DNA of 64,000 nt, taken from positions 19,450 to 83,449 of the IMG/VR virus record IMGVR_UViG_3300009551_000045. One strand, 5' to 3'. The position numbers and the translations under genes were made by a program. Shown here piece after piece: positions 915 through 58,250 of this stretch (its first letter is position 1; the number at the start of each line of letters is the position of its first letter). Source of the DNA: a virus. Lineage: Duplodnaviria; Heunggongvirae; Uroviricota; Caudoviricetes. Below the pieces are notes generated by a model. It ran no database searches, was not told the origin of the DNA, and worked only from the letters and a program-made list of their open reading frames with translations.

Positions 915-1499
915 CTAGGTGCAAGATCCGCCAAAGAAATTCAATCTAAGACCATCTGAATCCACTAAATAATTACCTGAATCGTCTATTAAATCTCCAC
1001 ATGGACTTAATTTTATTTTTTGTATTTTTTTAACAGGAGCATTAACCGGTAAACCTTCTTTAATTTTAAATACCGCTTTTGATAAAAGTTTATTTTGAAT
1101 GGCTTTTGCTCTATTCACACTATCTGGAAGAAGATAACCTTCTACGACCACATTAAAATTCGATCTAACACTTCTGTCTTCTCCTTGAGAATATTCCACT
1201 GTATCGGAAAATGAATCTATAGTTACTCTGAATTTATATCTATCTTTATATCCCCAATATGAATTATTAGCAAAATTGAAGGCTCCTATAACATCATCAC
1301 ATTGTTCAACGCTATTTGTTAATATTGAAGCATTATAAGTTATATTTATATAATCTGGAACTGGAGCTATATGATTTTGCTTAACCGGTATCCTATTCGT
1401 CAATATAGCAAAATTATCATATTGATTTTTTCTAGTATATTGCGTCTGAAAAGATTGATATATGAACTTTATTTCCATCCAATTTATTTCCAAGATCAC
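915..1499 (-). CDS. hypothetical virion-module protein
   Basis: 194-aa ORF co-oriented and tightly packed with structural genes. Confidence 0.4.
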   Translation of the reverse strand: MILEINWMEIKFIYQSFQTQYTRKNQYDNFAILTNRIPVKQNHIAPVPDYINITYNASILTNSVEQCDDVIGAFNFANNSYWGYKDRYKFRVTIDSFSDTVEYSQGEDRSVRSNFNVVVEGYLLPDSVNRAKAIQNKLLSKAVFKIKEGLPVNAPVKKIQKIKLSPCGDLIDDSGNYLVDSDGLRLNFFGGSCT

Positions 1500-1866
1500 T
1501 TCTATTTTGAATTTGATCTCGTTTAAGTAATATCATGGGAAGAAGTACTTTTCCTTCTTTATCTCTCAAAAATCCATTCTTCTGAACTTCATTCCATCTA
1601 TCACCATAAGCAAACTCAACAGGCACACTTATCTGTTGACCATTTTCAATAACAATAGGACAAATAACATTATTTATATAATAAATTATTGCTTCATATA
1701 TATCTATAAGACGAATATTTATCCGTTTTTGGGTATCATCCTTTACCGAAACATCATCTCCTCTATTAGATTCTACATTCGGATTTCCATCTCCCAATAG
1801 ATCATAAGGTTTAATCGTCTCATCTGTAATTTCCGATGGTGTCTTCGGAATTGGTTTAATAGGCAT
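1432..1866 (-). CDS. hypothetical protein
   Basis: 144-aa ORF overlapping its neighbour by 68 nt in another frame; the true start may be internal. Confidence 0.4.
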   Translation of the reverse strand: MPIKPIPKTPSEITDETIKPYDLLGDGNPNVESNRGDDVSVKDDTQKRINIRLIDIYEAIIYYINNVICPIVIENGQQISVPVEFAYGDRWNEVQKNGFLRDKEGKVLLPMILLKRDQIQNRSDLGNKLDGNKVHISIFSDAIY

Positions 1867-12695: not shown

Positions 12696-13265
12696 TTATT
12701 TTTTATATTTTGTTAAATTATTTAAATCATCATCTTTCATATCAGTGCTTACTCCATATATATTCCTAGTAAACATCCACATTGCATGTAAATGAATATC
12801 TAATTTGTGATACTTAGAAGATATAGTTCTTCCTAAATTCTTTAAATCATTCTCCCCATTATCATACATGTCTTCAGCAATATTCTCACAATTATCATAT
12901 ATATCAGTTACTTTATTTTGAAGTTTCTCAATTGTATCAGATATTTTATCAAGTTTATCTTCTCCTCCTTGTTCCAATAAATCTCCTAAAGAAAATCCCT
13001 GTACTATATTAAATAAACGTTCTGCCTGTGATTGATAATTAGAAAAATCTTTATCATATTGTTCAAGTAAAGATTTAGCTTTGTCCGGGGTATAAGAAAC
13101 ATCCTCCTTTATCTTCTTTCTATTAATTTTCTTTCTATCAAAAGTTTTTGGAGTAGCATATTGTTCTCCTTGTCCAGGTGAAAATGAAGCCCCTGTTCCT
13201 GTAGCAGATTCTTCATCTATAGATTTAAGTATCTCAGATAATGATATATTATTTTTCTTGGACAT
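12696..13265 (-). CDS. prohead-core-like protein sharing the capsid-protein N-terminal motif
   Basis: 189 aa. SIDEE/SATGTGASFSPGQGEQYATP closely matches the MCP segment LVAE/ASQTGTGASFAAGQGEQWAG. Confidence 0.5.
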   Translation of the reverse strand: MSKKNNISLSEILKSIDEESATGTGASFSPGQGEQYATPKTFDRKKINRKKIKEDVSYTPDKAKSLLEQYDKDFSNYQSQAERLFNIVQGFSLGDLLEQGGEDKLDKISDTIEKLQNKVTDIYDNCENIAEDMYDNGENDLKNLGRTISSKYHKLDIHLHAMWMFTRNIYGVSTDMKDDDLNNLTKYKK

Positions 13266-14100
13266 TTATTTCATCAATTAATTGATAATAATTAAATAGA
13301 TTTATAATATGTTCTTCCGTTACTACCTTACTTGTTGGAATTTCAGAGACAATCTCAGCTACCTGCTTAATTTTAATTTGACGAACAGGATCTTTAATAC
13401 CTTCACATAAAGTCAATAGAGACGATTTAACCTGGGAAAATTCCTGATTGATATAATCTCTCAATTTATTAGTTGTAGTGATATTATTGATATATTCCCT
13501 CAATAAAGCCTTTTGTTTAGAACTTAAAGAAGTTTCATACTTCTCATTGAACCGTTCTATCAATTTTTGATAAATCAGGTGTCTGGTGCCTCTATCTACT
13601 TTATTCAACTCTTCAATAATAACATCCTTAGATTCTGAATTATTACCAGTTATATGTTCAAAAAGAGTGTATTTAAAATCTGATATTGATTTAGGATTTA
13701 TGATATCTTTAGAATTATCGGATTCAAAGAGAAGATATGCAGAAGCATAAAGTTTGTAATTATCTATTTTTGCCTTAAAAAAATTATCTATATCATAGTT
13801 ATCTTTTATTTCAGATACTAATTTATATTTTTCTGTTTTTAATTTGGATTGATTTAACTTTCTCTGAGATTCTAACACACTATTGATAAGTATATTGGCT
13901 TTTATTTCACTTAAACCTCTTGTATTACTAAGAGTTTTATAAATTTTATATTCCTTGGCCAATTCAGTATTATTGAAATTCTTTTTAATGATATCCAATG
14001 CTTTAGAATTTTTATTTTCAAGCGTGTCTGCCGTAACTTGTCTTACGAGAAGCTCGAATATTATTCCTGTATTTTTTAACTTTGAGTGCTTTAATTTCAT
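13249..14100 (-). CDS. hypothetical head-module protein
   Basis: 283-aa ORF between the portal and the core-like protein. Confidence 0.45.
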   Translation of the reverse strand: MKLKHSKLKNTGIIFELLVRQVTADTLENKNSKALDIIKKNFNNTELAKEYKIYKTLSNTRGLSEIKANILINSVLESQRKLNQSKLKTEKYKLVSEIKDNYDIDNFFKAKIDNYKLYASAYLLFESDNSKDIINPKSISDFKYTLFEHITGNNSESKDVIIEELNKVDRGTRHLIYQKLIERFNEKYETSLSSKQKALLREYINNITTTNKLRDYINQEFSQVKSSLLTLCEGIKDPVRQIKIKQVAEIVSEIPTSKVVTEEHIINLFNYYQLIDEINVQEK

Positions 14101-14132
14101 CGAAAAAGTTATTTCTTTATATAAATATCGAA

Positions 14133-15983
14133 TTAGGATATATCCTTTATAGTAGATTCTGATAGAACGCCTTCGTAATCATCCTCTTCTTTTTTATTAT
14201 AATCTTCGAACAATACCACTTTCCTGGCTCCTCTTAAACGAGTAAGTTTTTTTCCTTCAAGTTTAAATGGTCCATTACCCGATTGTTGTTGAGTGGGTTT
14301 TCCGGGATGATATGGTTCTAATGCATCTTTCTTTCCAAGTGGATCTCTCCCATGAGGACTATCATCTGTTCCAATAGTAGAAGCTTTTTCTTTAGGTCTA
14401 CCTGGTTTATCTTCATCATAACCATCTGGTACTTCTCCTTTTGTATAACTTGGTCCATATAGAGCTGCAATATCATGAGGTGTGCCATAGGATTCTCCTG
14501 TAACAACAGGATCATTACCTTCCGTAGCAATTTGTTCATATCTGAATGCTCTTTTTTGATCCTCTACAAGAAGCTCTCTTTCTGTAAGTATTTGATCTTC
14601 GGACATTCCAAATATATTTGACATGATCCAATCTGTAGAAAGAACCCTTCCTTCCATGGCTTGTCTTGCCAAATCTATTTGCTCTTTCAAAAGAGCGATC
14701 TTCTCCTGTTTGTATATAATAGATGGAATGGTAAGAGAAAGCTCGAAATTATCCATATCCGCTTCTTCGAAGCCTTGAGTATATAAATGGATAAGTGCTA
14801 TCTTACGAAGCTCACTAAGAACAATATCTTGAATAGTCTCTATAGTTCTGCTAAAATTTATACCAATACCAGCTAAAGTTGATTTACCATTTATATCTTG
14901 AGTATAATTAAGACGATCCTTTGGCACTTTAAGAGCTGCTAACATTTTATCTCTCATATAAGCAACGTCATCCATACCGCTATACTGAAGTCCAGGAGCG
15001 GTATCTATTTTAGTACTGACATCATTACCTCTTACTGGTATGAAATAATCTTCAATCATGTTTTGAACATTGAATTTTAGATTATAATCACCGGTATTTT
15101 CATCAACATAAGGAGTTCTACGCATCGATTGAATAACCTTCTGCATAGCATTATCTACTTCATTTGGAGGAATATTACCTACATTTACATAAAATATGCG
15201 TTTATCTGATGATCTTGTAATACGATGAAGAAGAACTGCATCTTCTAAAAGAACCATTTGCTTGAATAGCTTCCTTGCAGGTTCCAGGTAGCTTCGTCCA
15301 TAAGGAAGCATATTAGGATCAGATAATAACCTGAAGTGAGCTACTTCATAGTTCTCATACTTCTCTTTATCATACATTCCAGCATTACCACCTGCCAAGG
15401 CTACAGGATCAACTCTAAAACACACATAAGCGGGATTACCTGGATCCTTACCTTCTTCTCTGATGATATCATATACAGAAAAAGGATTTACATTATAAAC
15501 ACCGAATTTCTCCGCGATCTGTAGCTTAAGATAAAAATCCCCGTATTTACACAGAGATCTTATCCACATAGGAAGATTAAATTTTATATTTAAAACGTCA
15601 TAGAAAAGATTATAAAGAATTGCCTGGATATTTTCATTGGAGCTCTTAATAGAAAGCATTTCTCCTGTTTCACTCTTACCAGTAGCATCTCCGGATATAA
15701 TATCCAAACAAGCGGCAACGATTGGATCGGTATCCATCGCTTCATAATCAGAATAGAGTTGTAAACGAAGCGTTTGATAGTTGAGAGTAGGATTGTATTG
15801 CATCCTAGCACCTGCTTTGTGCAAACGAGTAAATCTATCGATTAGTGAATTACTTTGTACTAAACCGAAAGATTGTATCTTGTCTATATCTATTACATGT
15901 AGATTTTTCCCACCTACATTTCGTATAATTATATCGGTGCTGAAGAGGCGTTTTAACCGAGGAAAAAGTGAACGGTCAGGCAT
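14133..15983 (-). CDS. portal protein (T4 gp20-like)
   Basis: 616 aa. LLEDAVLLHRITRSSDKRIFYVNVGNIP...MIEDYFIPVRG...TAPG...AYMRDKMLAALKVP matches the gp20 block [28 protein letters not shown]...TEDYWL...TLPG...ALYMALRVP. Confidence 0.9.
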   Translation of the reverse strand: MPDRSLFPRLKRLFSTDIIIRNVGGKNLHVIDIDKIQSFGLVQSNSLIDRFTRLHKAGARMQYNPTLNYQTLRLQLYSDYEAMDTDPIVAACLDIISGDATGKSETGEMLSIKSSNENIQAILYNLFYDVLNIKFNLPMWIRSLCKYGDFYLKLQIAEKFGVYNVNPFSVYDIIREEGKDPGNPAYVCFRVDPVALAGGNAGMYDKEKYENYEVAHFRLLSDPNMLPYGRSYLEPARKLFKQMVLLEDAVLLHRITRSSDKRIFYVNVGNIPPNEVDNAMQKVIQSMRRTPYVDENTGDYNLKFNVQNMIEDYFIPVRGNDVSTKIDTAPGLQYSGMDDVAYMRDKMLAALKVPKDRLNYTQDINGKSTLAGIGINFSRTIETIQDIVLSELRKIALIHLYTQGFEEADMDNFELSLTIPSIIYKQEKIALLKEQIDLARQAMEGRVLSTDWIMSNIFGMSEDQILTERELLVEDQKRAFRYEQIATEGNDPVVTGESYGTPHDIAALYGPSYTKGEVPDGYDEDKPGRPKEKASTIGTDDSPHGRDPLGKKDALEPYHPGKPTQQQSGNGPFKLEGKKLTRLRGARKVVLFEDYNKKEEDDYEGVLSESTIKDIS

Positions 15984-16133
15984 TAATTAATAATTTTATT
16001 TTTCCAAATAAATCCCATTGTCTGTTTTTTCTCTTCTCTACAACATGATCTAATGTGACCAATGTTGTAACCAAGTTCTCTATTGCCATGTATTATATAT
16101 CTTTATACGTATATAAATATTTAAAAACCAATG

Positions 16134-17831
16134 TCAAATCAACCAGGAACAATCTTCTTCTCGATTTCCTACCTTAAATTTGAAAGGATCGACTTTTGGT
16201 TTGATAATTCGGGGTTGTGGATCATCGGTAGGTCTTTTGTATTCATTGCCTATTATAGTGCTAGGTTGTATCGTATTATTCATTGATCCTCTTCTCATTA
16301 CGATATTATCTAGCATTGCAGCTGTGGCCTTTTTCCCTTCCATACTGAATCGGATAGCCGTATCACGTAAGAATCCAAAAATACCTTTGATTACAGTTAA
16401 ATCGTCATTGGATCCTTTCTGAGCCTTGGCTTTACCATTCGGGAACCAAATAAAAGTTCTCCATTCGTTTATAGATCTTTCAGAATGAACTATCAACACT
16501 TTCTTTTCAACCATTTGTATAAATGAATTGATAACTAATGGTCTGAATTTAACATTGGTAGAGAAGCCTGGAACCATTTTGGAGGTATCATTATCATAAT
16601 TACGTTGTAAATAAGTTTCAGCGTCCATTACCATACCTTCTTTTGGAGAATAATATAAATTGAGATATTTAGCTGAAACTGCATCTTTTACAACTGCCCA
16701 TCCAATACTTTCGCGTTCGATAACAACGAGTCCTTCGTTGTATTCATATCCTAATTGAAGAATAATACTGGGGAAATCATCAGTATCGGGTTGTCCTTTA
16801 TATTCAGCTACCTGTTCACAAGAGTGTATATCATATACATCTATAGTAGAGTAATCAGTTCCATCTCCTCTAGCAACGTCACATATTAAAGCATAACTTC
16901 TTCCAGGTTCTGGATACTTAAATATCCATATATTTGAGAGAGGTCCTCTCATTTCTATTGGAGGGCGTTTATGAGTTTTGTCATACCATTCAATCACCTC
17001 TGGTGAAATAACTGTGTCACCAGATGCTGCAAAATTACAATCACACTCCTGTCTTGCAAGACGTTCTCCTAATTCATCTGTCTGATGATCTCTCCAACGC
17101 TGGTCTCTCTTTGGATGAACTGTCCATGGTAATTCTACAGGAACGAACATTTTCTTTCTCTCATATTCATCTCGAGGTGTTTTTTCTCTAGCTTCTGTAT
17201 GTTTTTTATAAAACCAACCTCCAACACCATTAGGTGTAGAAAGTATAACAGCCATACCATCTGTGGTATCCAATGTAGATTGAGCACCACCCCATAATTC
17301 TTCAGCATTATCAATATAAGCAGCTTCATCTAAAAATAATATATGGGCAGTAAAACCGCGGGCAGATTTTGAATCACCGGATGCAGCTTGTATTGAAGAA
17401 CCGTTCTCCAATACTAAATACAATTCATTATTTTTAGTGTAAGGGAATTTACGTTTTAACCATGAAGGTAATTCATCATAAGCAAATTGAACTTTATCTA
17501 ATATAATCTTAGCCTTTTCTTGAGTAGGAGCAAGACACATTATTTTCTTATCTCTGTGGAATAATATATACCACAGAGCATATGCAGCACACACCGTTGT
17601 TATTCCAATCTGACGGGATTTAAGAATAGATATTCTTTTATATTTGTCAGTCTTGAATAGATTAACTAATTTGGTCTGGAAATCGAATGTTGAAAAAAGC
17701 ATTCTGCCTTCTTCAGCCTGAATATAAACATATTTGTTTATAAAATAAACAGGATCAGTTTCACATCTTGTATATTCAAGAGCTATAAGTTCTTTGGTAC
17801 CCAGTTGAGATATATCTTTCATAGCTGGCAT
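16134..17831 (-). CDS. terminase large subunit (gp17-like)
   Basis: Walker A ILKSRQIGITT, Walker B ILFLDEAAY, and a C-terminal nuclease-like acidic region. Confidence 0.9.
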   Translation of the reverse strand: MPAMKDISQLGTKELIALEYTRCETDPVYFINKYVYIQAEEGRMLFSTFDFQTKLVNLFKTDKYKRISILKSRQIGITTVCAAYALWYILFHRDKKIMCLAPTQEKAKIILDKVQFAYDELPSWLKRKFPYTKNNELYLVLENGSSIQAASGDSKSARGFTAHILFLDEAAYIDNAEELWGGAQSTLDTTDGMAVILSTPNGVGGWFYKKHTEAREKTPRDEYERKKMFVPVELPWTVHPKRDQRWRDHQTDELGERLARQECDCNFAASGDTVISPEVIEWYDKTHKRPPIEMRGPLSNIWIFKYPEPGRSYALICDVARGDGTDYSTIDVYDIHSCEQVAEYKGQPDTDDFPSIILQLGYEYNEGLVVIERESIGWAVVKDAVSAKYLNLYYSPKEGMVMDAETYLQRNYDNDTSKMVPGFSTNVKFRPLVINSFIQMVEKKVLIVHSERSINEWRTFIWFPNGKAKAQKGSNDDLTVIKGIFGFLRDTAIRFSMEGKKATAAMLDNIVMRRGSMNNTIQPSTIIGNEYKRPTDDPQPRIIKPKVDPFKFKVGNREEDCSWLI

Positions 17832-18259
17832 TATTTAATAATCAATTTTACTATTAGACCTACAGCAATTAAAATTGCTCCATTTCGTTCCCATCTCATG
17901 GTCTTTGCCTGGGATTTATATTCGTTGGATACCGTTTGCTGTAAAGAAGATTTATCATTCAATCCATTTATGATTTGAGATTGAAGTGATAGCTTCTCAT
18001 CAAGAATATTAATTTTTATACTATCTAAATCTATCTGCTTTTTCTGTAGGGCTATAGTACTAATATTGATACTATCCTGTTGTTTCAAATACTTCAAAAA
18101 TTCCAAATCCTTTGCTATACGCATAGCTTTTGAAGATGGAATAGTAACCGGTTTATCAATAGTCTGTGAAATACTTCTGAAGTTCATCAGAAGAATAAGT
18201 ATTAAGAATAGAATCACTTTTTTTTGCAGATTTCTGTATATCTTGAAGTCTAGTTTCAT
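17831..18259 (-). CDS. membrane-anchored coiled-coil protein (candidate small terminase or spanin-like)
   Basis: 142 aa with an N-terminal hydrophobic segment followed by predicted coiled coil. Confidence 0.35.
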   Translation of the reverse strand: MKLDFKIYRNLQKKVILFLILILLMNFRSISQTIDKPVTIPSSKAMRIAKDLEFLKYLKQQDSINISTIALQKKQIDLDSIKINILDEKLSLQSQIINGLNDKSSLQQTVSNEYKSQAKTMRWERNGAILIAVGLIVKLIIK

Positions 18260-18515
18260 TATAACGGATTTTAGTCTTGACTGTATCTATGGCTCTATTA
18301 GTACTATCTAATTTTGGATTAAGACCTATAATTTTCTTTTTCAGACTATCTACTCGAACTTGTAATATTTGTATTTGTTTTACGTTATCAGTAATTGTAG
18401 AACTATCTTGCTTTCTTGAATATAGGATATAAGCTACTAGACCTATAATAATAAATAGTGATATATTCTGACCATTGGAGAAAACTCCTTTTAGCCAGGT
18501 GAGGAAGATTTTCAT
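18156..18515 (-). CDS. membrane-anchored coiled-coil protein
   Basis: 119 aa with an N-terminal TM helix then coiled coil; overlaps the upstream ORF by about 100 nt in another frame. Confidence 0.4.
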   Translation of the reverse strand: MKIFLTWLKGVFSNGQNISLFIIIGLVAYILYSRKQDSSTITDNVKQIQILQVRVDSLKKKIIGLNPKLDSTNRAIDTVKTKIRYNETRLQDIQKSAKKSDSILNTYSSDELQKYFTDY

Positions 18516-18519
18516 AACA

Positions 18520-18963
18520 TTATTTTTTGTTCTTTTGCTTATCTTCCCAATCGCGAAAATTAAGGTTTCCTGAAAGATAGGCTTCCGCTTCTAATTTTCT
18601 TAGATGCTTGTTATTTTGGGTATAATTAGGATCCTTTAGATCATCTACATTAGATTCCTGCATATCACCACGAAGATTTTGACTATGATGCACTAATTCG
18701 TGAGCATATGATCTTAAAATATCTTTAGGATGACGACCTTCGGTAATAAGAGTAATTGATTTATTAGTAGGTTCATATCAGGCTGTCTTTCCAAATACAT
18801 CATTAACAAAAGACTTGTCTTTCAATAATATCACTTTTGGGGCCAGTCTTACTTTTAAACCATTATTTTCCATATACTCTGTAATGGATATAAGCCATGG
18901 AACTAAATCATTATCCTTCTTCGTCTTCTCCATTATCTTCGTCGTTTGTTTCTGGTTCTTCAT
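18520..18963 (-). pseudogene. HExxH-motif protein interrupted by one in-frame TGA (pseudogene, sequencing error or stop-codon readthrough)
   Basis: The 61-aa ORF 18781..18963 ends at TGA 18778..18780. The same frame then stays open for 85 more codons (YEPTNKSITLITEGRHPKDILRSYAHELVHHSQNL...KQKNKK) to TAA at 18520..18522. Confidence 0.45.
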
Positions 18964-19426
18964 CAGGAAGTTCCTGGTCTGTTGAATTATCCGTCTGATT
19001 GTTGGTAGATCCTATTGGCTTTTCACTCAAAGCTTTTCCTATGTAATCTAATGCCTGTAGATATTCAGAACGGTTTCCAAGATTATATTTCTTTCCCATT
19101 ATCTGGCATTGAAAGAAATCTCTCGCTTTGTATTCCTTACTATTTTGAAGTTCTCTCGGTGTAGGATCATATTTCAAATTCATTTTAGACCCATTCTTAA
19201 ATGTAATCTGAAATGTAGTAGGTTTGAATACTATTACTTCTATATCGGATATAAGCTTTTCCAGATCATCCTCTCGGCTATATTCATCCTGAGCTTTAGC
19301 TGTCAAAAGATCTTGGAGAACCAATTTAAGTACCTTAAAACGATTTAATGCATCGCTAACATTAGACGATGCATCATATTCTTCTTTCAATATATCTTTT
19401 AGTATTCCTAATAATTTTATAGCCAT
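18911..19426 (-). CDS. hypothetical protein with an acidic C-terminal tail
   Basis: 171 aa, ending ...DEEPETNDEDNGEDEEG. Confidence 0.45.
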   Translation of the reverse strand: MAIKLLGILKDILKEEYDASSNVSDALNRFKVLKLVLQDLLTAKAQDEYSREDDLEKLISDIEVIVFKPTTFQITFKNGSKMNLKYDPTPRELQNSKEYKARDFFQCQIMGKKYNLGNRSEYLQALDYIGKALSEKPIGSTNNQTDNSTDQELPDEEPETNDEDNGEDEEG

Positions 19427-19821
19427 ATATGAAGAACCCCCAATATTATTAAATTAACTGATTGATATAATTTTGCGTTATATTGAAACAAGAAATTATA
19501 AACTTTGTCTACGATGCTCTTTGGATCTTTACTGACAAAAAATGAATCTCTTTGTTGAAAGAGATTATATGAAATATCAAATGATATCTTTCTTAGTAAG
19601 AAAGAGCAACCAATTAAAAATAGATTCCATGACATTAACCATGAACCAATTCCGGTTAGAATTATATAAACCAATCCCCACCATCCATGTTTTATACTAC
19701 CCGATGTATGATTAGCCAAATCTTTCTTTTCCATATTAGAGTTTATCCTGGCTGTCACAATATTGTATACAACCAGGATAACCTCAATAATATAGATCAT
19801 ATAATGATTCATTGTTACCAA
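19417..19821 (-). CDS. small multi-pass membrane protein (WWGL motif)
   Basis: 134 aa with 3-4 hydrophobic helices and the motif WWGLVYIILTGIG. Confidence 0.45.
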   Translation of the reverse strand: MVTMNHYMIYIIEVILVVYNIVTARINSNMEKKDLANHTSGSIKHGWWGLVYIILTGIGSWLMSWNLFLIGCSFLLRKISFDISYNLFQQRDSFFVSKDPKSIVDKVYNFLFQYNAKLYQSVNLIILGVLHIWL

Positions 19822-20087
19822 CCTATATAATTACCTCTAGCGGCAGCTTCTACAGATGTATTCTCTCGTACCATTAGAGATCTTCCAAAAATTGCAATTC
19901 CTAATGATGCTAGTGTCACAAACGCTGATATAATTTTGTATTTATCGACATCTCTTTTTTGACCCACTTTAAATACAATGGCCCATAATATGCTAAGTAT
20001 TATCAATGTAATACCTAATCCCCACCAAAATTGTGATGTAGAGGTTACATAATGAAATGCTTGAGAAAACGAAATATTCTTGTCCAT
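19815..20087 (-). CDS. small two-TM membrane protein (WWGL motif), paralog of the preceding gene
   Basis: 90 aa with the motif WWGLGITLIILSILW and a second TM helix. Confidence 0.45.
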   Translation of the reverse strand: MDKNISFSQAFHYVTSTSQFWWGLGITLIILSILWAIVFKVGQKRDVDKYKIISAFVTLASLGIAIFGRSLMVRENTSVEAAARGNYIGW

Positions 20088-20116
20088 AATAATGATTTTT
20101 GTATATATAAATATGG

Positions 20117-21106
20117 TTATTTTATCCTTAGAATTGATTTTAACTTGGATACAAAGCCATTTGTAGCTTTTTTAAGTTGTTGTGAATCAATATTATTACC
20201 TTTTTCTATCTTGAAGTTTGGATTCTTTAATATATCATTGTAATAAGTACCAAGACGTTTCATCACTTTCTTACGATTTTTATCATTCAAATCTTCGATA
20301 AATTCCTTTGCTTTTGGATTAGAAAGAAGACCTCTTTTGAATTCGTCAAAAGTATCTGGAATATCTTTTTCTTTTTCAATATATTTGATTACATCTGGCA
20401 TAAAATATTCAAAAAAGTGAGCGTTAACTTCTAATGGGTTATTTATATATCCTGAATAACCATGTTTTTGTCGTTGTTTTTGATATGATTTATCTATATC
20501 ATTTGGATCCGTCTTTATTTTATCGAAATCCAATAAATGTATTAATTCGTGATATAAATCCTTTTCATCAAATGAAACTTGTAATTTTGGATCTTTTTTT
20601 ATCCTAGCTCCATATACATCTATAGAAGGCATTCCGCCTTTAACAGCCGGTTTAAATTGAGCTTTTGTACTACCTTTATCAGTTGGCAATATATTCACTG
20701 TAAAATCACCAAAATTTAATTCGATATAACTTAAATTACCTATACCTTTTACTTTTATTTGTTTATTATCAGATGAATATTTTTCTATTAAAGATTTTAT
20801 TTGTTGTATATAAGTCTTGGCCTTTTCACTTTTATTTGCGTCAGTAGATAAAGAAGCTTCATTTATATTACTAATAGGTGTCCACCAGTCACTACAATAT
20901 TCATCTGGTGATACAGGTATTTGATCTGTCTGAGCCCATTTATAAAAATATTTATTCTCACAGGCAGCTTCATCATTATCCCAATATTTGCAATTGGCGC
21001 AACAAGCTCCGCCTTTTGGAACTTTTATAGCAGCTTTATGATCTGAAGGAAGAGAATAATCTTCTCCACCATATTGTTCTGACAATAGATCGATTAGTTT
21101 TATCAT
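20117..21106 (-). CDS. putative zinc metallopeptidase (HExxH) with an N-terminal Cys cluster
   Basis: LYHELIHLLD motif; N-terminal CCANCKYW..C cluster. Confidence 0.45.
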   Translation of the reverse strand: MIKLIDLLSEQYGGEDYSLPSDHKAAIKVPKGGACCANCKYWDNDEAACENKYFYKWAQTDQIPVSPDEYCSDWWTPISNINEASLSTDANKSEKAKTYIQQIKSLIEKYSSDNKQIKVKGIGNLSYIELNFGDFTVNILPTDKGSTKAQFKPAVKGGMPSIDVYGARIKKDPKLQVSFDEKDLYHELIHLLDFDKIKTDPNDIDKSYQKQRQKHGYSGYINNPLEVNAHFFEYFMPDVIKYIEKEKDIPDTFDEFKRGLLSNPKAKEFIEDLNDKNRKKVMKRLGTYYNDILKNPNFKIEKGNNIDSQQLKKATNGFVSKLKSILRIK

Positions 21107-21729
21107 TTGGCTTGATTTGAAATAGTAGATCCGATCATAGTTGCACTTAATAATATTTCTTTTATTTCAGTCTCCGATAATGCTTTCTTTTTCTTGATAT
21201 AATGAACTATAAGAACTCCCATAAATTTATCGTCTATGGTCTTTAAAGCTGCACAATAAGAGCTTTTGGCATCTGTGTCTCTGCTAAATCCTCGTATATC
21301 AAAATCATCTACGGTAGCTTTCTTAATGTCCTGGTAATATGTAATGCTATTTTCGGATAGATAATTAAAGAATTTACCAAAAATACTTACAGGAATATTT
21401 TGATACTTTTCTCTGACTGATGGTATACCAGTCATAGTTTTTTCATAAAAAACTGAGAACTTTAATACTGATCTTCCAGATGGATAAAAGTTTCCTCCAT
21501 TATGAAATTGTAAAAGATAAACTCTATCAGCTTGATATTCTTTTAATATTTCATCAAGCTTGTGTTCTACTAAAATATTATTCTTGACACATTCAGCTAC
21601 AGGGTCTTGTTGTTTCTTATATAATTTAATTCTTCTTATTTTAAGATAATGACCGATAAGAAGCGTCACCCCCGATCCGATTCCAGGGCCTAAATAAGTC
21701 AACATTTGTTCTACGGTAAAGTGTATCAT
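21103..21729 (-). CDS. hypothetical protein
   Basis: 208-aa ORF. Confidence 0.45.
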   Translation of the reverse strand: MIHFTVEQMLTYLGPGIGSGVTLLIGHYLKIRRIKLYKKQQDPVAECVKNNILVEHKLDEILKEYQADRVYLLQFHNGGNFYPSGRSVLKFSVFYEKTMTGIPSVREKYQNIPVSIFGKFFNYLSENSITYYQDIKKATVDDFDIRGFSRDTDAKSSYCAALKTIDDKFMGVLIVHYIKKKKALSETEIKEILLSATMIGSTISNQAK

Positions 21730-21902
21730 TATTTTCGTTTTGCTTTGTTACGAATCATACCATAAAAAAATTCCTTTCCTTTCTCTTTTCCATATTGTTG
21801 AATCATTTTTTGTAATGCGGGTTTAAGTTTCTTCGCTACTTTCTCTTCTTTGGAAGATAAAGGAGAATCAATTTCATTGTAAATTTTTACTAGAGATATC
21901 AT
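21729..21902 (-). CDS. unlisted small basic protein (57 aa)
   Basis: Hand-translated MISLVKIYNEIDSPLSSKEEKVAKKLKPALQKMIQQYGKEKGKEFFYGMIRNKAKRK fills a 145-bp gap; its stop overlaps the next gene's ATG. Confidence 0.25.
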   Translation of the reverse strand: MISLVKIYNEIDSPLSSKEEKVAKKLKPALQKMIQQYGKEKGKEFFYGMIRNKAKRK

Positions 21903-22479
21903 TATTTATATTGTTTTCAAACTCATTTAGTTCTTCAATCCATTTCTTACCGATCTCTTTTCGACTAATTCCGCCGACCATTTCCTGCTTATCACCTTGT
22001 TCTGTATATACATCATCAGTGGAAATTATAAAATCCTGGACAAAATCTTTAGCATCTTTTATAAAACCAACCATATTATCCTGTACAATTTTATTCGCAT
22101 ATTCCTTATATGTACCATTAACGCGCATTAATGTTTCCATTGATATCACACATCCAAAACACATAGAATGTAAAGAATAATATTTCTTATCATAAATATG
22201 TTTCATCGGTTTTCCACAATTAGGACACATAATAGGCATCACTAGAGATTTCCTAACACTATCAATTTTACTATAACTTTGTTTGATACCATCTTTAATT
22301 ATCCATTGCTTTTCATCTTCCTCCCAGATATCTCCTTCCTTATGAAATGTTTGATTTTTTTTATATCCTATCTGTGTGACCGTATTATCATTATGTTTTT
22401 TTCTAACAATATTTCTAATTCTATTTACATCTTTTTCCTTAAATTCTTTTTTAAGTAAAGATTCGTCTTTTTCTCCCAT
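21874..22479 (-). CDS. zinc-ribbon protein
   Basis: CPNCGKPMKH...CFGC four-Cys motif. Confidence 0.45.
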   Translation of the reverse strand: MGEKDESLLKKEFKEKDVNRIRNIVRKKHNDNTVTQIGYKKNQTFHKEGDIWEEDEKQWIIKDGIKQSYSKIDSVRKSLVMPIMCPNCGKPMKHIYDKKYYSLHSMCFGCVISMETLMRVNGTYKEYANKIVQDNMVGFIKDAKDFVQDFIISTDDVYTEQGDKQEMVGGISRKEIGKKWIEELNEFENNINNDISSKNLQ

Positions 22480-25531: not shown

Positions 25532-25972
25532 TTATTTGGCAGCCTTTTTAAAAAATTTACCCAAAAGCTGTTTATTGTAGCAAATATCTGATTCTAAACA
25601 TCCATGCAGTATTTGGTGACGAAGCTCCTGATACGTGAGGGTTGTCTTATCGTAACAAATATAGAGTATTGTTCGACGAAAACATTGCAATCCATAAGTT
25701 TCAATATCTAATTTTAATTCTTCTTCAGATCCCCAATAATCCTTCCAATCAGATTCTTTTTTTATTTTCTTCTTCTTAGACATTCTCTTATCAGGAAGTG
25801 CAGCTAAAGCTTTTTTGCCTAATTTTATATTCCTTTCAGAATAAAGATTCTTTTTTCCTATGTAAAATTTATCATTGCGAATATCCCATATTTTATAAAT
25901 AATGCCGTAAGCATTTTCAGGTAGTTGGGAAATATCAATGATCGCTTCACCTTTATAAAACCAATTTATCAT
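25532..25972 (-). CDS. GIY-YIG-type (homing) endonuclease-like protein
   Basis: YGIIYKIWDIRNDKFYIGKK...R..H resembles a GIY-YIG core. Confidence 0.5.
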   Translation of the reverse strand: MINWFYKGEAIIDISQLPENAYGIIYKIWDIRNDKFYIGKKNLYSERNIKLGKKALAALPDKRMSKKKKIKKESDWKDYWGSEEELKLDIETYGLQCFRRTILYICYDKTTLTYQELRHQILHGCLESDICYNKQLLGKFFKKAAK

Positions 25973-26280: not shown

Positions 26281-27240
26281 TTATATAAATATAGATTTAA
26301 CTTCATTAAGCATTTTATCAATATCCGGGGGTTGTTTTTTAAGACAAGAATTCTTTCCCGTTTCTATTACCAAATCAAAATACTTTGAAGAACAAAATTG
26401 TTTATCATACGGATTATGATCAATATAAGGTAATTCTATCCTATGATCATTTTTTATGAATAATTTTCCTTTATGTTCTTCAACAGCGCCTGCATTATGA
26501 TATATTGGGTTTTTATTCCATTTTGGCCTTGTATCTGTAGCCATAGAAAAGGATAAATCAGAAACTATATTAGTCGGAAAACCATAATACCAAGCACTCC
26601 ATAATAAAGCCCACATATCCGAAGTCCATTTCTGGATATCTGAATCTATCGAAGATAGATATTCATAGAGCTTTTCCGATTTATATTGAACTCTTTTCCA
26701 AAATGAAGAAAATACATTTTTCATTATATATTGAGCTCCTCCAGCGGTATAATCTCTATTCAAAATATCACAAACTCTCAAATTCATTATTTTACACATT
26801 TGTTGCAATATATTATCTGATTTACTATCAATATAATTAGAATCGATATAACTTTTGGTATCACTTAGATACCATATTTCATCTTTTAATAATTTCTCAA
26901 AATTTAGTTTTCTAGTGAAAACTATGTCACAGTCATGATAAAAAATAGGATGTAATTGCAACCATGGGAATCTTTCCCAATGTTTATAAAGAATATGAGG
27001 TCTTATAGACGGAGGGTATTTTTTGTAATCTCTAGTATCTTCATAAAAATAAAACCCAACCTCTTTATATTTCTCTATTAATTTAAACCACCATTCGCCA
27101 ATATGTTTATTAATACCAATCACAATTTGTATATCACGAGCTGGTACAGACATATTGATGAAATTATCAAGCATAACTTCAACTTGCCAGGCAAAATAAA
27201 GTTCATCTGGAGAAGCTGATATGTATTTTATCTCTCTCAT
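26281..27240 (-). CDS. hypothetical protein
   Basis: 319 aa, W/Y-rich. Confidence 0.45.
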   Translation of the reverse strand: MREIKYISASPDELYFAWQVEVMLDNFINMSVPARDIQIVIGINKHIGEWWFKLIEKYKEVGFYFYEDTRDYKKYPPSIRPHILYKHWERFPWLQLHPIFYHDCDIVFTRKLNFEKLLKDEIWYLSDTKSYIDSNYIDSKSDNILQQMCKIMNLRVCDILNRDYTAGGAQYIMKNVFSSFWKRVQYKSEKLYEYLSSIDSDIQKWTSDMWALLWSAWYYGFPTNIVSDLSFSMATDTRPKWNKNPIYHNAGAVEEHKGKLFIKNDHRIELPYIDHNPYDKQFCSSKYFDLVIETGKNSCLKKQPPDIDKMLNEVKSIFI

Positions 27241-37385: not shown

Positions 37386-37738
37386 TATATACTTCCTGAA
37401 GATTGTGTTATTGTGAATATTTGTCTTTGAAGAGCTACATTTTCACTCCTCAAATTTATTATCTCTTGTTCCAGATCCTGAATACTAATACCTATATATT
37501 CCGAACTTCTATTTATAATATCAAGATGTGACAATCCTAATGAACCAGAATAAGATCCTGACGATGGTATATCATAAAATAATTGATCATAATATTGAAA
37601 AAATTCCTTTACATCTATAATGGGAGTTTCACTAATAGAAGAAGGAGTTGGAACTAATTGCTGGAAATCGGTTTCAATAACATTGGAATAACTATTTTTC
37701 CCATAAACGATTCTTTCTATTTTTACTTGTTCTCCCAT
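37385..37738 (-). CDS. hypothetical protein
   Basis: 117 aa; ATG/stop overlap with its neighbour. Confidence 0.4.
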   Translation of the reverse strand: MGEQVKIERIVYGKNSYSNVIETDFQQLVPTPSSISETPIIDVKEFFQYYDQLFYDIPSSGSYSGSLGLSHLDIINRSSEYIGISIQDLEQEIINLRSENVALQRQIFTITQSSGSI

Positions 37739-37932
37739 TATTTCAACACTTTGAAATAAAAATTATCATTATACACATTCTTTATTCCATTGGATACAAT
37801 TTTTATATCTATGGAATAATATCTTTCAGGTTCTAATCCATTCATATATAAATTAAAAAAACTTCCATCACTATCTGTACTTATCTTTGTGAATTGATCG
37901 TCGTAATCTACCACTATATTATCTGTATCCAA
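37738..37932 (-). CDS. hypothetical small protein
   Basis: 64 aa. Confidence 0.35.
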   Translation of the reverse strand: MDTDNIVVDYDDQFTKISTDSDGSFFNLYMNGLEPERYYSIDIKIVSNGIKNVYNDNFYFKVLK

Positions 37933-37973
37933 ATCTCTTATACTATAGTAAGAACTAGTAGGTAGGTATTTAT

Positions 37974-38825
37974 TTAGTGTATATAATGATGATGTGACAA
38001 ATGTCCTTTGAGGATATTGATCCCTGGCATTATATTAAATCTTACAATTTCATTTTTATTGTATTTACCTTTATTATTACCTATAGTAAATACGCTATTT
38101 TTACCTATCATTGACATGCTTCCAGTATCTGGAGTATAAATAGAATCATTCCATTTCAATTCCAAACATGGAGGATAAATAGTATTTGTATCTACAGAAA
38201 AATAAGTTAATTTATACGATTGAGAATTAAATTCTACCGATGAATCATTCTTTATAATAAATCCGTCATTTACAATAGATTTAGATACGTAAGAATTAAC
38301 TATCGATGATACATCAAAATTTATATTGAGATCATCTCTTTCATGGAAAGATTGAGTAGCTATAAAAGATGTATACCAGGTTCCTCCACCCATGGAACTT
38401 GTTATAAAGGATCCAGTACTACCTGCACTATAGGATGAAGTAAGCCATAATAAATCTGTAGTTCTATTCAACCAAGAGACACCATCCGTTATAATTGGGG
38501 TGTCATCTATTCTTCCTGTTCCCATATCCCAAGCTCCACTTACAGCAAATAGATTTAAAGAAAATTTAGCTGGAATTGTAGATGCATCCGATAAATACAT
38601 TTTTAAACTTGCCGAAAAAGGAATATTTCCTATATAATTAGATACAACTTCATTTATATCATCATCTGAAAATTTTATTACAATCCTATTAGCAGCTGGA
38701 GTATCAATATAAAAATCGGATATACCGTTTGATAAATCCAATATTTCAGAAATACCAGAATTTTTATAAGGATTATCTGAAAATATCGTAGCATCTTTCT
38801 CAGGAAATATTTTATATATGGCCAT
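37974..38825 (-). CDS. hypothetical structural protein
   Basis: 283 aa. Confidence 0.45.
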   Translation of the reverse strand: MAIYKIFPEKDATIFSDNPYKNSGISEILDLSNGISDFYIDTPAANRIVIKFSDDDINEVVSNYIGNIPFSASLKMYLSDASTIPAKFSLNLFAVSGAWDMGTGRIDDTPIITDGVSWLNRTTDLLWLTSSYSAGSTGSFITSSMGGGTWYTSFIATQSFHERDDLNINFDVSSIVNSYVSKSIVNDGFIIKNDSSVEFNSQSYKLTYFSVDTNTIYPPCLELKWNDSIYTPDTGSMSMIGKNSVFTIGNNKGKYNKNEIVRFNIMPGINILKGHLSHHHYIH

Positions 38826-48259: not shown

Positions 48260-48730
48260 TCATAAATTTTCAAATTTATATTTTGAACCTATAGTTTCTA
48301 TTATATCTATCGCAGTATCAATGTCTAATTTAAATCCCTCTCGAGCCTCATTTATTCTTGATCCGATACCTTCCAGGTATCTATGGATCTCTTGTTCTAA
48401 CATATATCCATTGCAGCATTTGTATCCAAATACAGGAAACCAAGGCGTTATCACACCTGTAGCAGCATTGATCTCAGTAACTCTTTGATGAATAGAAGTA
48501 GTAGTGAATCCTATCTTCAATATACCAGGAATATGTTTATTAGTAAGAACATAAATCCATTCAGGTCTTTTATTAGATCCTACAATATCTCGGAGAGATT
48601 CACCATAATATTCGACGGTATCAAATCCGTCATCTCCAGGTGTGAGTGTAAAAGCAATAGCTCTTTTAGTATCCCATAAATCAAGTTTATGATACTTTGC
48701 AGCCTCTTCCAGGCTTAGTCTTTTAAGCAT
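48260..48730 (-). CDS. T5orf172 / GIY-YIG-superfamily nuclease-domain protein
   Basis: WIYVLTNKHIPGILKIGFTTTSIHQRVTEIN...YMLEQEIHRYLE pattern. Confidence 0.55.
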   Translation of the reverse strand: MLKRLSLEEAAKYHKLDLWDTKRAIAFTLTPGDDGFDTVEYYGESLRDIVGSNKRPEWIYVLTNKHIPGILKIGFTTTSIHQRVTEINAATGVITPWFPVFGYKCCNGYMLEQEIHRYLEGIGSRINEAREGFKLDIDTAIDIIETIGSKYKFENL

Positions 48731-57837: not shown

Positions 57838-58060
57838 TCATCAGTTAACTCGATCTGACATGATAGATATTCTTATCGATGTCTTGTATACAAAATATGT
57901 TATTTATTGTAATGATTGTGGTAAAGTGAAAACTTCCGGTATGGAAAATAAGGTACAATTCGCTATAAAATTGTATGAAGAAGGTTGGAGAGGTTATAAT
58001 TCATCTAAACATTATTGTCCTACATGTATAAAAATAAACAAAAATGACATTCAAATTTAA
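57824..58060 (+). CDS. zinc-ribbon small protein
   Basis: CNDCGK...CPTC. Confidence 0.4.
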   Translation: MIENDHQLTRSDMIDILIDVLYTKYVIYCNDCGKVKTSGMENKVQFAIKLYEEGWRGYNSSKHYCPTCIKINKNDIQI

Positions 58061-58250
58061 AGAAAATGCCAAAGACTTCTGTCAAACAGGTACTGAAGAC
58101 TTCTGGTATGCACTATTCGATGGTGGATATGTGGAAGTAGAAGGGATCCTGGCAGATGAAACACAGCTAAATGAAGTGATTAAAGCTGTACAATTACTTG
58201 AACAATTCAAAAATCAACTGGAAAATGCCGGGATATATGAGCCCTGTTAA
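58044..58250 (+). CDS. hypothetical small protein
   Basis: 68 aa. Confidence 0.4.
   Translation: MTFKFKENAKDFCQTGTEDFWYALFDGGYVEVEGILADETQLNEVIKAVQLLEQFKNQLENAGIYEPC

Follow-up and report, generated by a model that had tools for sequence, protein, structure and literature searches.

An in-frame TGA in a zincin-like gene of a T4-like phage is a private change from an ancestral TGG codon and not programmed recoding

Does a single TGA inside an otherwise open phage gene mark a site of recoding, or a gene that has only just been broken? This question is raised by a locus on the minus strand of a 64,000-nucleotide stretch of a Caudoviricetes genome (IMG/VR record IMGVR_UViG_3300009551_000045; hereafter the window), for which an earlier note proposed programmed readthrough, selenocysteine, a very recent nonsense mutation or a sequencing error. 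The reading frame runs from ATG 18933 to a TAA at 18522-18520 and comprises 137 codons (18520..18933, minus strand), and its sole interruption in the sequence of the window is a TGA at codon 52 (18778..18780). The residues before the stop are ...VNDVFGKTA, after the TGA at 18780-18778 the same frame continues as YEPTNKSITLITEGRHPKDILRSYAHELVHH..., and the post-TGA translation YEPTNKSITLITEGRHPKDILRSYAHELVHHSQNLRGD... stays open to the terminal TAA. The HExxH motif that the earlier note recognised is indeed encoded 3' of the TGA, as AHELVHH at 18702-18685, and its HELVHH core (18685..18702; H78 E79 x x H82 H83) is predicted to belong to a metal-binding, catalytic helix. With standard decoding, the sole product expected is a 51-aa N-terminal fragment (18781..18933) comprising helix 1, strand 1 and a loop, which lacks both the motif and the whole catalytic helix. 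The frame had been proposed to start at ATG 18963 and to encode a single protein of about 146 aa. The single protein stands, but its length is 137 aa, as both the homologue alignment and the gene call of the nearest relative begin at ATG 18933 (MEKTKK..., 137 codons), whereas a frame opening at ATG 18963 would share 53 nt with the upstream gene.

The open run of 85 codons past the stop was also taken to be unlikely by chance, and arithmetic from the nucleotide frequencies does give it a probability of about 1e-3. Alone, the run is nonetheless weak evidence, because the genome is tightly packed and the next gene may share the frame of the one before it; in the same window, open runs of 103 and 218 codons follow the stops at 26281 and 56008, respectively. 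What distinguishes the TGA case is that homology extends across the stop and that inspection of the frame shows no in-frame start after it before GTG 18693, which lies within the HExxH motif itself.

The homology can be traced in a large protein collection, where 272 homologues were found at E <= 0.01, nearly all of them single chains of 120-150 aa. Single-chain homologues span both halves of the split gene over about 130 aa, and the best of them, P0001, shows 98% identity across all 137 residues, the window gene differing from it at three codons. From an alignment of 83 sequences with P0001 at its head, AlphaFold2 produced a confident single-domain model (pLDDT 91.1, pTM 0.86) with a helix at 11-23, strands at 33-37, 51-54 and 59-63, a helix at 69-88 that carries the HExxH motif, and C-terminal helices up to residue 134. 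Codon 52 falls inside the second strand of the modelled sheet, so that the stop cuts through one fold. It is all but excluded, then, that the locus holds two genuine and separate small genes: the upstream ORF does possess a start and a stop of its own, but all 272 homologues form one chain across both halves, the stop would divide a beta-sheet of a single-domain fold, and the downstream half has no in-frame start until the middle of the HExxH motif. On the basis of the homologues and the single-domain model, the two ORF halves form one gene, and the orthologues give no sign of the two independent genes that would have spoken against this.

The product of the intact gene is probably a metalloprotease. 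Every one of the 83 aligned homologues keeps H78, E79, H82 and E115, and the arrangement of an invariant HExxH on helix 69-88 with a glutamate downstream (E115, codon 18589..18591, minus strand) suggests a gluzincin-type metal site in which, by analogy with the zincin fold, E115 may serve as the third ligand. Structural similarity to solved zincins is also present, Foldseek returning weak matches to selecase and IrrE, while a profile search of PDB sequences gave no meaningful match. At the level of families, no Pfam entry reached its gathering score (Peptidase_M91 came nearest, with 19 bits where 25 are required). Sub-threshold Pfam matches nevertheless recur among the members, with DUF6782 in 31 of 83 and Peptidase_M91 and DUF6647 in 15 of 83 each, all three being putative HExxH metallopeptidases, and PHROGs offered only faint matches to families of unknown function. 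Compared with the minimal zincins, namely the ArdC C-terminal domain, Wss1/WLM, SprT/Spartan and the minigluzincins selecase and projannalysin, identity is only 12-15%, and unlike them the proteins carry a signature of their own (GRHPKD-LRS-AHE-HH-QN...E-EAY--GN--FRDWED). They constitute a widespread and unannotated family of about 130 aa, found in T4-like phages whose hosts are soil and aquatic Bacteroidota and cyanobacteria.

Larger proteins can also harbour the domain. In Flavobacterium phage vB_FspM_immuto_2-6A (NC_055915.1, L028 785-3508), it occupies approximately residues 572-694 of the 907-aa YP_010114595.1, which is annotated as a NadR-type nicotinamide mononucleotide adenylyltransferase; as this protein has no Pfam match at E <= 0.001, its annotation seems to lack support. 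Among metagenomic homologues, several are fusions of 200-240 aa without a Pfam match, and Pfam scans of the multidomain homologues yielded no functional clue.

The genome that carries the gene belongs to a T4-like phage that probably infects Bacteroidota. Its virion genes are T4-like, as judged by the Pfam families on record for sister proteins of identical sequence (Gp23, Portal_T4, gp13, gp25 and Peptidase_S77), and among cultured phages the Flavobacterium "immuto" myoviruses stand closest to it, sharing 41.7% identity in TerL and 42.5% in the zincin-like domain. The Pfam families of identical sister proteins also point to two likely mobile endonuclease genes, at 25532-25972 and 48260-48730, of the SegE-type GIY-YIG (PF19835) and T5orf172 (PF10544) families. 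The end of the window (57838-64000) holds few long ORFs, no Rfam families and no tRNAs, and includes a rise in GC to 0.42-0.48 at 59000-60000 against 0.32 genome-wide.

Exact look-ups of neighbouring proteins recovered sister assemblies of the same phage, all at least 99.5% identical to the window. They come from ENA (ERZ27252098, with a 69,493-bp contig, ERZ27252311, ERZ27252312 and ERZ27252106), JGI (3300025924, 3300009093, 3300005577 and 3300005563) and Logan (SRR6056499, SRR33761163 and SRR5508059), and their sources, to judge from JGI project identifiers, are presumably soil or rhizosphere metagenomes. The contig that encodes P0001 (IMGVR_UViG_3300045391_002220, or L004, 8,070 bp) aligns without gaps to window 13838-21907 at 99.94% identity, with five mismatches, three of which fall in the zincin-like gene within 68 bp.

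The three in-gene changes are the stop itself and two missense changes. At base 18778, G on the coding strand has become A, converting TGG into TGA (W52*), while G is present in all five independent samples that cover the base. The other two, 46 and 67 bp upstream of the TGA change, are private to the window: S37L (18824, TCG>TTG, with C in four samples) lies at a column that is variable in the family, and P30L (18845, CCG>CTG, with C in six samples) replaces a residue for which 54 of 83 homologues have Pro and none has Leu. At sites 18845, 18824 and 18778 the sisters (six, four and five samples, respectively) thus read C, C and G on the coding strand, that is Pro, Ser and Trp, without exception. 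The orthologue comparison that the earlier note had proposed therefore returned a sense codon, TGG, in all sister assemblies covering the site and also in the distant orthologue P0005 (on L001, 69% identical), and since sisters and P0005 agree, the window alleles are derived and private. Across the 83 aligned homologues, the column for codon 52 contains Y 43 times, W 17, H 14 and F 9, and never Cys. No second copy of the window haplotype or of the TGA allele is on record in exact look-ups of two proteins specific to the window, a 90-aa variant (S54) and the truncated 51-aa product, and a megablast of the 10 kb around the TGA site against 50,697 phage records gave no match. Scanning JGI metagenome contigs for a pattern that admits either TGA or TGG was likewise empty, but this has no bearing on the allele, since JGI contigs with the site do exist (L010).

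Short sister contigs (L006-L010, L012-L015) repeatedly end inside the gene, between window positions 18546 and 18902, at 18902, 18834 (twice), 18814, 18690 (twice), 18616/18615 and 18546. These ends may result from k-mers that the conserved core has in common with co-occurring related phages, or from low coverage. The clustered variation and the contig breaks raised the possibility of a DGR-type variable region, which looks unlikely, as the sister assemblies are invariant within the gene.

That the relatives have TGG at the site already bears on every form of recoding. The broadest form, in which TGA is a sense codon for the phage or its host (code 4 or 25), whether globally or only late in infection, would suit the low GC content of the window (31.8%), and TGA-to-Trp is a reassignment known from recoded phages (bioRxiv 10.1101/2021.08.26.457843). 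In such phages, 26-71% of genes contain in-frame stops, and a suppressor tRNA is detected in 35-40% of the phages (bioRxiv 10.1101/2021.08.26.457843). The window resembles the TGA-to-Trp, code 4 phages in being a low-GC phage with a TGA at a Trp position, but differs from them in having an in-frame TGA in only one of about 70 genes, which is not the coding-density pattern of a code 4/25 phage. It also uses TGA as a true stop: the 69 main-strand genes end in TAA 47 times, in TGA 15 times and in TAG seven times, with 0-18 further open codons past the stop in the TGA-ending genes. No tRNA gene, and hence no suppressor with a UCA anticodon, was detected by ARAGORN in the window and in sister loci that span about 61 of the 69.5 kb of the genome, and the sister genomes do not have the TGA. 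An altered code can accordingly be given almost no weight, and the earlier note was right to consider global reassignment unlikely.

The reading of the TGA as selenocysteine is the least credible of all, as nothing beyond the in-frame TGA speaks for it. In the 78 nt downstream of the TGA, folding of 18790-18700 (91 nt) shows no SECIS-like or readthrough-stimulating hairpin (MFE -7.5 kcal/mol, z +0.41), since 128 of 200 shuffled sequences fold at least as well, and Rfam finds no RNA family in the window. Furthermore, the homologous column is aromatic and never Cys, which rules out a selenocysteine/cysteine family, and the AlphaFold2 model places the residue in a structural beta-strand outside the active site.

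Natural suppression of UGA offers a subtler possibility. Near-cognate tRNA-Trp misreads UGA as Trp, and Trp is the commonest residue inserted at UGA by natural suppression in bacteria, so that a functional leaky stop might restore the ancestral residue and supply a low, tuned amount of full-length protein, whether tolerated or selected. The wholly intact frame downstream agrees with this idea, as does the ancestral Trp. However, the stop is conserved in no sister or orthologue (five samples and the L001 orthologue have TGG, and the 272 called homologues have a sense codon there), no stimulatory structure follows it, the next base is U and UGA-U is not known as a leaky context in E. coli, and the two additional missense changes suggest decay of the gene rather than tuning. 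We consider such a leaky stop improbable. Taken together, the sister codons, the usage of TGA, the tRNA search, the fold and the homologue column show that the TGA is not programmed recoding, so that the readthrough and selenocysteine options fall away and the evidence favours the two others that the earlier note had listed, a recent nonsense mutation or a sequencing error.

To decide between these two, the TGA has to be seen against the other private differences of the window, of which there are about 26 relative to the sisters over 61,986 covered bases. Five are synonymous substitutions (3019, 3268, 6927, 32019 and 52753), which give the window the look of a distinct natural lineage. Another five are indels, each a length change in a short A or T run, and by two of these a gene is broken. 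In the first such gene, which covers window 915-1866 on the minus strand and lies two genes downstream of that for a gp13-like neck protein, 2 bp are deleted near 1461 (sister CATTTATATC, window CATATATC), so that the 317-aa reading frame seen intact in L016 and L017 is divided between ORFs 1432-1866 and 915-1499. A 1-bp deletion near 38029 (sister ATATAAATGCC, window ATATAATGCC; window 37738-38825, minus strand) frameshifts a 362-aa gene, intact in L020, L021 and L022, leaving ORF 37974-38825, which stops at 283 aa; its neighbours are a GH108 lysozyme-like gene and a 117-aa gene followed by a giant gene of 1,795 aa. At least three lesions private to the window thus break genes, the in-frame TGA among them, and the earlier statement that no other gene shows the pattern is correct for in-frame stops but does not extend to frameshifts, which break the genes near 1461 and 38029.

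The three changes in the zincin-like gene stand out from this background. When the 18 private events supported by at least two samples were placed at random over 59,031 bp, three events fell within 68 bp in 0.3% of placements (P about 0.003), and the cluster is therefore not explained by the background rate. Elsewhere, seven differences from L016, the only comparator there, fall within 55 bp at 12712-12766, in the 3' end of gene 12696-13265, a patch that looks like a small divergent or recombinant stretch. Over window 41249-61986 there are 106 mismatches to L024 (the 69-kb ENA contig) and five to L025, which indicates that one sister lineage has a markedly more divergent segment in the early-gene region.

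A sequencing or assembly artefact, with a true genome that reads TGG, is the one competitor to be taken seriously, although we hold it to be the less probable reading. The neighbouring changes and the frameshifts could then be errors too, introduced by low coverage, by damaged reads or by a long-read assembly that was not fully polished. Such an origin agrees with the TGG of all sister assemblies, with the failure to find the window haplotype in any public assembly, and with the kind of changes observed: each of the three changes in the gene is a C>T or G>A transition, as expected of cytosine deamination, and five private indels lie in A or T runs. Two of the indels, moreover, disrupt large genes (of 317 aa and 362 aa) among those for the virion, which is hard to square with a viable phage and fits an error-prone assembly. 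On the other side, the remaining private substitutions, including the five synonymous ones, look like natural divergence, and it would be unusual for three errors to gather in 68 bp when the 8 kb around them is otherwise clean. A miscall linked to methylation motifs was considered because the changes lie in CCGG, TCGA and CCTGG, and was rejected as a systematic cause, as these motifs keep 79, 128 and 99 other intact copies, respectively.

On balance, we lean modestly towards a biological change rather than a consensus error, because the divergence elsewhere looks natural and three clustered transitions are unlike scattered errors. The explanation that we prefer, by a modest margin, is a very recent, private loss-of-function allele, TGG>TGA, carried by a variant lineage of this T4-like soil phage, in which the gene would be a fresh pseudogene. 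A G>A change at 18778 would have turned the Trp codon into TGA in this copy of the phage genome only, the zincin-like HExxH protein would end after 51 residues and its catalytic helix would never be made, except for a trace of full-length protein that might arise, as at any nonsense codon, by misreading of UGA by near-cognate tRNA-Trp. P30L and S37L in the same 68 bp and the two frameshifted genes elsewhere would then be further fresh lesions. In agreement with a recent lesion, the ancestral sense codon is one mutation away and is kept in the 99.94%-identical sister, and the truncated product is without essential parts of the fold, the stop lying in strand 2 and the HExxH motif downstream of it. 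The case is like ordinary nonsense pseudogenisation in its single G>A change, in the sense codon kept by relatives, in the extra missense changes and in the lack of recoding machinery, and is unlike it in that the private cluster is denser than neutral decay predicts. This density could indicate that P30L, S37L and W52* are a selected knockout, for example an escape from a host defence that senses the protein or its activity, or the outcome of local hypermutation; we regard either as unlikely. If loss were selected, residual misreading of UGA as Trp would still leave a trace of the protein.

Collectively, an ancestral TGG, an allele confined to the window, a protein of one domain and the lack of any hallmark of recoding describe a nonsense lesion of an ordinary kind. 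As a single derived change of this sort, the TGA has no importance as a recoding candidate, and annotation should treat the two ORFs as a single gene that has been disrupted. With at least three genes broken relative to the sisters, the quality of the sequence or the viability of the phage should be questioned before the window is over-interpreted. The zincin-like family itself might deserve its own study and, if the allele is real, this natural knockout suggests that the zincin-like gene is dispensable.
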